From a virus, in IMG/VR virus record IMGVR_UViG_3300010222_000002, positions 1 to 64,000 of that record: 64,000 nt of DNA. One strand, written 5' to 3'. Below are positions 32,047-32,160 of the stretch, piece after piece. How positions within the stretch are numbered: the stretch's first letter is position 1; each line of letters starts with the position of its first letter. The position numbers were made by a program, and so were the translations under genes. A model generated the notes under the pieces. It had not been told where the DNA came from. It was given only the letters and a program-made list of their open reading frames with translations, and did no database searches.

Positions 32047-32160
32047 GGTTTTGTCCCACCATTTAGGCCGAGCGCCGTGGTCGGCGCAACGGGATGGAAG
32101 GGAATCGAACCCTTCGCCGCCCTTTCATCCTAAGACTCGTGTTACGTTAGGTTAAGTCTT
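32047..32160 (-). promoter_or_regulatory. structured 5-prime leader, paralogue of 29153-29262, with tRNA-like minihelix (32092-32130)
   Basis: The minus strand reads TAAGACT...AGTCTTA, then GGATG-AAAGGGCGGC-GAAGGG-TTCGATT-CCCTTC-CATCC, then GCGCC-GACCAC-GGCGC, then GGGACAAAACC-ATG. Confidence 0.6.

Follow-up and report, generated by a model that had tools for sequence, protein, structure and literature searches.

We have analyzed a stretch of 64,000 nucleotides (nt) from a Hafunaviridae-like haloarchaeal myovirus (IMG/VR record IMGVR_UViG_3300010222_000002, positions 1 to 64,000; referred to below as the window). Between its genes lie small tRNA-like elements of about 40 nt, here called minihelices. 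This analysis deals mainly with one of them, copy B, which is found on the minus strand upstream of an open reading frame (ORF) of 303 amino acids (aa) and had been described in an earlier note from the sequence alone. Comparison of 25 distinct copies leaves us nearly certain that a selected tRNA-like RNA fold exists. At one orthologous position, this tRNA mimic and a self-cleaving hammerhead ribozyme have replaced each other. Our preferred reading is that the minihelix is a punctuation signal at which the host RNase P and tRNase Z cut read-through polycistronic RNA, and we place this reading halfway between belief and disbelief.

The minihelix and its conservation as an RNA fold

Each minihelix consists of a 5-bp acceptor-like stem (7 bp in one HSTV-2 copy, which has 7+6 instead of 5+6 pairs), a linker of 8-17 nt (usually 10), a 6-bp T-stem and a 7-nt T-loop. 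The 3' strands of the T-stem and the acceptor are contiguous, giving a stack of ~11 bp that is followed by an unpaired base in the place of the tRNA discriminator; this base is C in 15 of 23 copies. The loop TTC(G/A)ANT with its closing G-C pair is present in every copy that has a loop (GTTC(G/A)ANTC in 24 of 24 distinct copies). Position by position, TTC is found in all 24 copies with a letter there, and the purine, the A and the final T each in 25 of 25. In place of a D-arm and an anticodon arm there is only the linker of about 10 nt, which contains a G in 23 of 23 copies, nearly always as GG with T or A before it (motif A-N-T/A-G-G-N...). The linker resembles a D-loop without its stem and, to judge from its letters, could provide contacts of the G18/G19 type to the T-loop, forming a tRNA elbow.

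The stems hold eight G.U pairs and only one A.C mismatch, so the folded molecule is the gene-strand RNA (or single-stranded DNA). All full-length matches checked by hand lie on the coding strand, except for weak reverse-strand echoes of strong palindromic matches. Placement is intergenic and co-directional with the neighbouring genes; most of 24 copies have the nearest upstream stop codon at most ~36 nt away and are followed by an ATG after 20-67 nt, with a few farther away. A stable hairpin, with varying stems, is predicted at most ~6 nt past the discriminator in nearly all of these 24 copies (per-copy folds of the first 36 nt).

The earlier note had read the minus strand from 32130 to 32092 as GGATG-AAAGGGCGGC-GAAGGG-TTCGATT-CCCTTC-CATCC, which is exact to the base, and had compared it with a collinear leader at 29.2 kb (copy A). 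This comparison also holds. The two leaders have the same module order and 87% column identity over the 123 columns of a pairwise alignment. From A to B, pair 3 of the T-stem changes from G-C to A-T (GAGGGG/CCCCTC to GAAGGG/CCCTTC), and in the acceptor pair 3 changes from G-C to A-T and pair 2 from G-T to G-C; all stem differences keep pairing. A third, divergent minihelix of the window was parsed by hand. It is weak, with 15.4 bits and expect values (E) of 0.24-0.67 under covariance model R1, and lies upstream of a AAGACTCAA repeat and a box at 17821-17830, that is, in another module order than A and B.

A megablast search of the region against phage genomes gave no match, and relatives there were reached only via their proteins; related contigs were collected by protein-guided and pattern-guided searches. 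Orthologous genes in these contigs display the same upstream architecture, with the same geometry and T-loop and with unrelated stem sequences. Examples are GGGTA/TACCC, CCCGC/GCGGG, CCCGT/ACGGG and GACACCG/CGGTGTC for the acceptor-like stem and GGTCGG, GAGCAG, CAACGG, CCCCGG, CGGCGG and GGCGGG for the T-stem. Covariance model R1 was built from nine hand-delimited copies. In these nine, 98 of 98 stem cells are paired and 10 of 11 pairs show double-sided changes, and none of 500 shuffles reached the observed paired fraction or covariation score. Outside its training set, R1 recovered further copies in these contigs and others in a virus contig that had been assigned to a Halomonas metagenome-assembled genome (MAG), in another IMG/VR contig and, with two copies, in HF2 (genus Haloferacalesvirus).

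The 25 distinct copies come from the window, HSTV-2, HRTV-7, HF2 and metagenomic halovirus contigs. In an alignment fitted to the model structure, so that pair counts lean toward that structure, 98.8% of their 259 stem cells are paired and 10 of 11 pairs are doubly changed. Double changes occur in 106 cells, as compared with 32±4 in shuffles (none of 500 reaches the observed covariation), and slid controls are paired at only 42-59%. The conclusion is robust because the effect is large and the hand alignment is independent. When RNAalifold was given an unguided MAFFT alignment, it found the T-arm and the repeat hairpin and missed the acceptor stem. Misalignment and the bulge penalty are, in our view, the causes of this miss; the evidence for the acceptor stem comes from the hand-made and the model-based alignment. 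R1 matches of 25-36 bits outside haloviruses are genuine tRNAs, and low-scoring copies were for this reason accepted only after hand parsing. An IMG/VR scan with the pattern GGGCGGN5GGTTCGANTCC yielded, among the matches listed, mostly genuine phage tRNAs, with only HSTV-2 related by a box filter; R1 later revealed three further true copies within the loci of that scan. One metagenome scanned with a T-loop plus box pattern gave only chance matches adjoining real tRNAs.

The earlier note had argued for selection on RNA structure and had named a multi-homologue structural alignment as the check that could refute it. The compensatory pattern persists in both the 9-copy and the 25-copy alignment, and the argument has gained strength with more homologues. 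The contrary explanation, in which A and B would be what is left of decayed tRNAs or recently duplicated copies in random drift, draws on the tRNA-like T-arm and on the high identity of the two leaders. It is refuted by the comparative data, since all 25 copies taken together keep their pairing with unrelated stems at orthologous positions. In addition, there are no traces of a D-arm or anticodon arm, and neither ARAGORN nor the Rfam tRNA model calls the copies; we give this explanation practically no credence.

No curated RNA family of Rfam 15 accounts for the minihelix. ARAGORN calls five tRNAs in the window, none of them at 29.2 or 32.1 kb, and RF00005 does not match the copies even at E<=1-10; only ~10 nt separate the 5' acceptor strand from the T-stem. 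The sole match in Rfam 15 is a 17-nt T-arm fragment of the transfer-messenger RNA (tmRNA) model at 12-14 bits, and no family comes near its gathering score. The T-arm proper is that of a tRNA, with the closing pair G53-C61 and the T-loop TTCRANN in 24 distinct copies. An acceptor-like helix able to stack coaxially on the T-arm, followed by an unpaired 3' base, as in t-elements, is likewise present, with stems supported by covariation. The minihelix has in common with the canonical tRNAs of the same viruses the T-arm consensus, the contiguous acceptor/T 3' strand, the discriminator, the lack of an encoded CCA, the strand of the flanking genes and the intergenic slots; it differs from them in its 5-bp acceptor and in having no anticodon arm and no D-stem.

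Shared slots and proposed transcript processing

The slot before the homologue of HSTV-2 gene 90 (the 303-aa ORF) holds a minihelix in 9 of 9 genomes examined, as a loop variant in HSTV-2 and HRTV-7, and the slot before the gene-83 homologue (443 aa) holds a minihelix or variant in 8 of 8 genomes whose locus covers it. The slot between the gene-90 and gene-89 homologues is occupied in two ways. In the three closest relatives (the window, L123 and L122; L numbers are our handles for the loci collected) it contains a type II hammerhead, and in five relatives at a greater distance (L151, L153, L128, HSTV-2 and HRTV-7) a tRNA-like minihelix. Ribozyme and tRNA mimic have thus replaced each other at this position.

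The window has two hammerhead-like leaders (Table 1), both with GAAA, a CUGACG(A) core and a putative UC cleavage site (CUGACGA and a predicted cut after CUC in the leader at 27146-27210). An 8-bp pseudoknot of loop I with the 3' tail (GUGGUCGU/ACGACCAC) was found by eye in the leader at 31027-31091. This leader reads CUGACGU where CUGAUGA is expected, and both leaders, like the L123 orthologue, have an extra U before stem II. HF1 and HF2 have a known hammerhead, HHphage (AF222060.2, annotated at 10292-10359). The helicase start codon follows it after 13 nt, and its cleavage site is no more than 3 nt away from a mapped transcript 5' end (Perreault et al. 2011, PMC3088659). The window leaders resemble HHphage in virus family, in their intergenic slot a few nt before a start codon and in their place in an early polycistronic unit. 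Copies A and B were also considered as degenerate hammerheads, since they share GGGCG and a ..CCACGG.. tail with the hammerhead leaders. This was rejected because the core is absent: RF02276 does not match them at E<=10, GGAG or GGCG stands in place of GAAA, and there is no CUGAUGA and no stem I. Unlike HHphage, A and B are incapable of self-cleavage; host enzymes would have to do the cutting. The 3' halves of the two kinds of leader may share an origin.

Genuine tRNAs occupy similar positions. In the window, tRNA-Gln precedes a leader that ends ..CCACGGCG-GAGACATAACC-ATG, and in the HF2 record IR2 is followed by tRNA-Arg and a gene, and IR3 by tRNA-Asn, tRNA-Tyr and a gene. The interchange of hammerhead, tRNA and tRNA mimic points to site-specific transcript cleavage as their common trait.

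We propose that the minihelix would act as a minimal tRNA mimic, encoded in sense orientation where early and middle genes of haloarchaeal tailed viruses follow each other in one direction. Host tRNA end-processing enzymes, which we infer to be RNase P and tRNase Z, would recognise the acceptor/T-arm stack and the elbow in read-through viral RNA. The RNase P cut would fall on the 5' side of the acceptor-like stem and the tRNase Z cut after the discriminator, in copy B between 32091 and 32090. The cuts would separate the upstream from the downstream cistron, and the downstream mRNA would begin a few nt before the hairpin and ~45 nt before its ATG. Type II hammerheads and genuine tRNA genes would do an equal job in neighbouring or orthologous slots.

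There is precedent for such processing in haloarchaea: Haloferax cuts tRNA-like t-elements by RNase P and tRNase Z in vivo, which has been used to release CRISPR RNAs (PMC4326828, PMC4946936). The t-element of Haloferax volcanii, upstream of 5S rRNA, is like the minihelix a tRNA-like fold inside a longer transcript of a haloarchaeal system. It serves as a signal for tRNase Z cleavage (and for RNase P in engineered constructs), and the neighbouring RNA that is released is the functional product. It differs in being cellular, single-copy and part of an rRNA operon, whereas the minihelix is a viral multi-copy family between protein-coding genes with no D-stem or anticodon arm and with putative processing. 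The t-element is reportedly the work of Hölzle et al. in 2008 and 2012. Farther afield, mitochondrial tRNA punctuation and t-elements, mascRNA at the 3' end of MALAT1 and the tRNA-like-miRNA units of murine gammaherpesvirus 68 are RNase P or RNase Z marks that define the ends of neighbouring RNAs. They belong to another domain of life and most have a cloverleaf, and we know of none among them that alternates with a hammerhead in the same slot.

Published data on HF2 transcripts fit the proposal. RNAs of 12-35 kb were found by reverse transcription PCR and mostly species of 1-2.5 kb on Northern blots, and the authors suggest processing (PMC8707807). The long transcript F2 of HF2 reaches nt 3073 and not gene 005, while the RNA of gene 005 extends at least to nt 2937, inside the minihelix at 2906-2945. 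The gap from 2937 to 3073 is thus a discontinuity that holds the predicted tRNase Z site 2945/2946.

Several points weigh against the proposed cleavage. In the second HF2 minihelix (4376-4414), which is preceded by the alpha motif CTAAAGACTTAGAA at 4343-4356, the 5' end T-4384 mapped by primer extension (Russ et al., PMC8707807) coincides with the first G of the linker GG, ~30 nt past the alpha-motif TATA. The predicted RNase P end (4376) and tRNase Z end (~4416) are not among the reported HF2 5' ends (PMC8707807). The same spacing puts putative starts at ~32122 in copy B and ~29226 in copy A. RNAs that start in the linker do not have the 5' acceptor strand and hence cannot be cleavage substrates, so that the covarying acceptor stem can matter only in read-through RNA. 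The stacked helix has 11 bp as opposed to 12 in a tRNA and the acceptor 5 as opposed to 7. Some syntenic copies (before HSTV-2 genes 83 and 90, and in L151) keep the two-helix geometry with a loop TTCAYGA that is not a T-loop and with longer or shorter linkers. Nearest-neighbour folding of A and B favours pairing of the linker with the 3' strand of the T-stem; this minimum free energy fold was rejected in favour of the tRNA-like fold because its pairs are broken in about half of the homologues. Cleavage of the minihelix copies is putative. The activity of the H. volcanii tRNase Z suffers when the D-arm is missing, and Hölzle et al. in 2012 (Biochimie) reportedly saw no in vitro cleavage of the computationally predicted Haloferax tRNA-like elements that they had selected for testing.

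The HF2 start site can also be accommodated by a role without cleavage, in which the minihelix (or, in RNAs with a start in the linker, its T-arm hairpin alone) together with the following hairpin shields mRNA ends from exonucleases or insulates the translation of cistrons. A promoter-derived HF2 RNA from T-4384 would have 6 nt ahead of its T-arm hairpin, nearly all minihelices have a second hairpin behind them, and several copies come directly after a stop codon, as expected of a 3' stabiliser. Any stable hairpin would suffice for this role, which leaves unexplained the invariant T-loop, the linker GG, the contiguous 3' strands, the nearly constant 11-bp stack and the covarying acceptor, as well as the ribozyme swap in the same slot; we consider it rather unlikely.

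Another idea is that the elbow binds a protein or the ribosome, given that T-loop, linker GG, acceptor-like stack and discriminator are read by many tRNA-binding proteins. Such an elbow mimic might be a decoy (for T-loop modifiers, the CCA-adding enzyme or tRNA-targeting defence) or a translational control, acting in cis or as a released RNA of ~40 nt, and the several copies per genome and the conserved box right before the ATG would suit it. The flanking ORFs have no informative domains, however, and no candidate partner is encoded nearby. An element with no anticodon arm cannot replace or decoy anticodon-directed functions, and the varying module order argues against a fixed cis riboregulator. 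On balance this idea is unlikely.

In an improbable scheme that combines cleavage and decoy, the minihelix and the adjacent promoter-like repeat might make up a two-state device. Read-through RNA, with the full tRNA mimic, would be cut by the tRNA-processing enzymes of the host, freeing a stable elbow RNA of ~40 nt as a possible decoy for tRNA-binding host factors. RNA started from the embedded promoter at the linker GG would be unable to form the acceptor stem and would escape; over evolution the host-dependent module would have been freely swapped with a hammerhead that is independent of the host. If this were true, the virus would couple the temporal origin of a transcript to its fate.

Adjoining modules and the DNA-level alternative

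Copies A and B are preceded by a TAAGACT...AGTCTTA repeat that the earlier note had included in the leader. The repeat is indeed present in both copies, but it is conserved in sequence with little covariation and is probably not part of the RNA fold. It belongs to a repeat family, D3 (AAGACTTAA...AGTCTTA), with four copies in the window, and its resemblance to the promoter-bearing alpha motif of HF2 suggests that it is probably a promoter or regulatory module at the DNA level. The class I intergenic repeats of HF2 carry promoters and consist of alpha CTAAAGACTTAGAA, beta with TATA TCTTTAAGTC and gamma CGTCTNNTAGAG with the transcription start site (Russ et al. 2021, PMC8707807). The window module TAAGACTTAAC...AGTCTTA resembles alpha and the AAGTCTTAG part of beta. 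It cannot be counted as a class I repeat: A and B have the alpha-like AAGACTTAA and a AAGTCTTAG-like arm and show neither the TTTAAG TATA box of beta nor gamma, and the minihelix is not among the repeats described.

The label of leader given to the whole element likewise needs qualification. The leader modules are conserved, but their order varies: some copies sit directly after a stop codon, and in others the minihelix precedes the repeat (window copy 3, L122 4809-4848 and the second HSTV-2 copy). We therefore describe the minihelix as an intergenic punctuation element rather than strictly a leader element.

At least 11 minus-strand genes of the window have, 0-16 nt upstream of their ATG, a conserved box G(G/T/A)GACA(C/T/A)AAC(C). 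Related boxes occur in HF2 (GTGACACCG, CCAGAGAGA). The box was rejected as a Shine-Dalgarno sequence, its complementarity to the 16S 3' end being poor and not conserved. An A-rich patch before it was rejected as a TATA box, since, given the spacing, transcription in copy B would then start past the conserved ATG. Two further leaders (36586-36731 and 37756-37909, minus strand) start with the AAGACT.. repeat and end with the box, and their middles match neither the minihelix nor the hammerhead model. The one at 36.6 kb starts GGGCGAAAGGGA...TCCCTC like hammerhead stem III and has a large insertion and GGAUGAU in place of CUGAUGA.

With a promoter-like repeat adjoining or overlapping the element and a mapped start inside the homologous HF2 copy, the minihelix itself might be sought at the DNA level, as part of a promoter or operator, with palindromes that bind a regulator or extrude as a cruciform, or as an attP-like partial tRNA for integration or recombination, partial tRNAs being attP sites in this virus group (PMC8707807). 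Operator half-sites keep their sequence; in the minihelix it is the loop that is conserved, the stems being free to covary. Only one strand tolerates G.U pairs, and the fold is kept in copies with no repeat beside them. As to attP, there are multiple copies per genome, three of them in the window; orthologous copies have unrelated stems, and none adjoins the integrase, which has its own tRNA-Gly. We judge a DNA-level role very unlikely. The tRNA-Gly(GCC) scores only 27.6 bits on the Rfam tRNA model, and its arrangement with the integrase is as described for the attP partial tRNA of HF2-group viruses.

Table 1. Positions of the elements discussed, in window coordinates unless an HF2 accession is given
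Feature	Position	Strand	Details
Minihelix copy B	32091..32130	minus	GGATG / AAAGGGCGGC / GAAGGG TTCGATT CCCTTC / CATCC / C; covariance model R1 55.2 bits, E=9e-12
Copy B acceptor strands	32130-32126 (5'); 32096-32092 (3')	minus	GGATG; CATCC
Copy B linker	32125-32116	minus	AAAGGGCGGC
Copy B T-arm	32115-32110; loop 32109-32103; 32102-32097	minus	GAAGGG; TTCGATT; CCCTTC
Copy B unpaired base (discriminator)	32091	minus	C
Copy B hairpin	32087-32072	minus	GCGCC-GACCAC-GGCGC; begins 4 nt past discriminator base
Copy B box	32057-32047	minus	GGGACAAAACC; preceded by AAATGGT; ATG 32046-32044 directly after
Copy B inverted repeat	32132..32160	minus	AAGACTT..AGTCTT, within TAAGACTTAAC...GAGTCTTA; overlaps TAA stop (32161-32159) of upstream 43-aa ORF
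303-aa ORF downstream of copy B	31135..32046	minus	HSTV-2 gene 90 homologue
Minihelix copy A	29195..29234	minus	GGGTG / AGAGGGCGGA / GAGGGG TTCGATT CCCCTC / CACTC / A; R1 49.8 bits
Copy A hairpin	29192-29177	minus	GCGCC-ACCCAC-GGCGC
Copy A box	29164-29154	minus	GGGACACAACC; before ATG at 29152
Copy A inverted repeat	29236..29264	minus	AAGACTT..AAGTCTT; overlaps TAA stop (29265-29263) of 127-aa ORF
443-aa ORF downstream of copy A	27821-29152	minus	HSTV-2 gene 83 homologue
Third minihelix (divergent)	17944..17985	minus	GGGAA / GGTGGCCCGTAG / TGGCGG TTCAATT CCGTCA / TTCCC / A
Type II hammerhead-like leader, slot between 303-aa gene and gene-89 homologue	31027..31091	minus	RF02276 33.6 bits (gathering 37), E=0.001-0.005, full length
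Second type II hammerhead-like leader	27146..27210	minus	RF02276 28.3 bits (below gathering score 37), E=4e-4 in 181-nt search, full length
tRNA-Gln and leader	18722..18861 (tRNA 18787-18861)	minus	3' part of leader box-type, ..AATGACGCCACGGCG GAGACATAACC..ATG
Box sites	5987, 9048, 16099, 17821, 18722, 27130, 29155, 31010, 32048, 36586, 37756	minus	
Tyrosine-recombinase integrase	22622-23764	minus	~280 nt from tRNA-Gly(GCC)
tRNA-Gly(GCC)	24042-24117	minus	
HF2 minihelix 1	AF222060.2 (L155) 2906-2945		R1 36.7 bits; unannotated
HF2 minihelix 2	AF222060.2 (L155) 4376-4414		R1 37.2 bits; unannotated; CTCCG / AGTGGCGGC / CTACGG TTCGACT CCGTAG / CGGAG / C, then hairpin, GGGTGACACCG-ATG

Virus context, distribution and significance

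The best matches of the 443-aa and 303-aa proteins are in the Halorubrum/Haloarcula tailed viruses HSTV-2, HRTV-7, HRTV-2, HRTV-11, HCTV-6 and HCTV-15 (Hafunaviridae, genus Mincapvirus), with amino acid identities of 54% for the former and 34-40% for the latter (tblastn). The 303-aa ORF has no Pfam domain. The window also encodes a PD-(D/E)XK nuclease, the large terminase and the major capsid protein; genes from ~1 to 40 kb lie on the minus strand and the morphogenesis genes on the plus strand. At 40528-40628, where the minus- and plus-strand modules diverge, four tandem copies of ~25 nt (..GTTCCC(G/T)TTCGT(T/A)GTTCT) may form a bidirectional promoter or origin region. Other features of the window include a family-B DNA polymerase ORF of 1342 aa (1183-5211, minus strand) with a Hint/intein insertion at about residues 606-995, and a LAGLIDADG/HNH-repeat homing endonuclease ORF at 15278-16108. 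An exact 32-nt repeat, TCGGTGTCTTCGGTGGTCTGTTCCTCGTCGTC on the plus strand, occurs at 31814-31845 and 38950-38981, inside the minus-strand 303-aa and 377-aa genes, in both of which it codes for the acidic DDEEQTTEDT. HF2 (AF222060.2, L155) encodes an RtcB RNA ligase at 37516-38880. RtcB joins 2',3'-cyclic-phosphate and 5'-OH ends, which is the chemistry left by hammerhead cleavage.

The minihelix family is probably wider than the Hafunaviridae. Outside that family, a copy scoring 51 bits follows the portal gene of a BJ1/CGphi46-like contig (L079 983-1022 / L011 5371-5410); BJ1 itself has no minihelix at this position. Another copy, of 49 bits, was found in a contig of 46% G+C (L029 2489-2528), where the neighbouring protein has no phage match. 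The 61-kb contig of a 'Halomonas sp.' MAG (L151, NZ_JBDNGD010000196.1) has four minihelix copies and shares synteny with haloarchaeal viruses of the HSTV-2 type; it is probably a halovirus that was mis-binned.

The family is apparently undescribed, being absent from Rfam 15, from the annotation of the HF2 record and from the halovirus papers searched, which use 'tRNA-like' only for the attP partial tRNA-Thr and the aberrant tRNA-Pro. The latter, annotated on the plus strand before the large terminase gene of HF2 (45001-77672, L157, at 29631-29701), is cloverleaf-like on the minus strand, the coding strand of the terminase, with T-arm GCCGG TTCGACT CCGGC, and is separated by 17 nt from the terminase ATG that follows it. 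Prior knowledge covers hammerheads in halovirus leaders, intergenic repeats with promoters and, in general, processing signals of the tRNA-like kind. What appears to be new is a tRNA mimic with neither D-stem nor anticodon arm, located between protein-coding genes of archaeal viruses and interchangeable with a ribozyme.

The minihelix would constitute a new RNA family for Rfam and, lacking both D-stem and anticodon arm, is perhaps the smallest mimic of the tRNA elbow to occur in nature. It is a natural counterpart of engineered expression arrays flanked by tRNAs or ribozymes, and at 40 nt it could become a compact tool with which RNA ends are set in haloarchaea. How archaeal viruses process their transcripts has hardly been explored, and for HF2 no mechanism beyond 'processing' has been proposed. 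The minihelix family provides concrete candidate processing sites, in syntenic slots of at least two genera of Hafunaviridae and in a BJ1-like contig.

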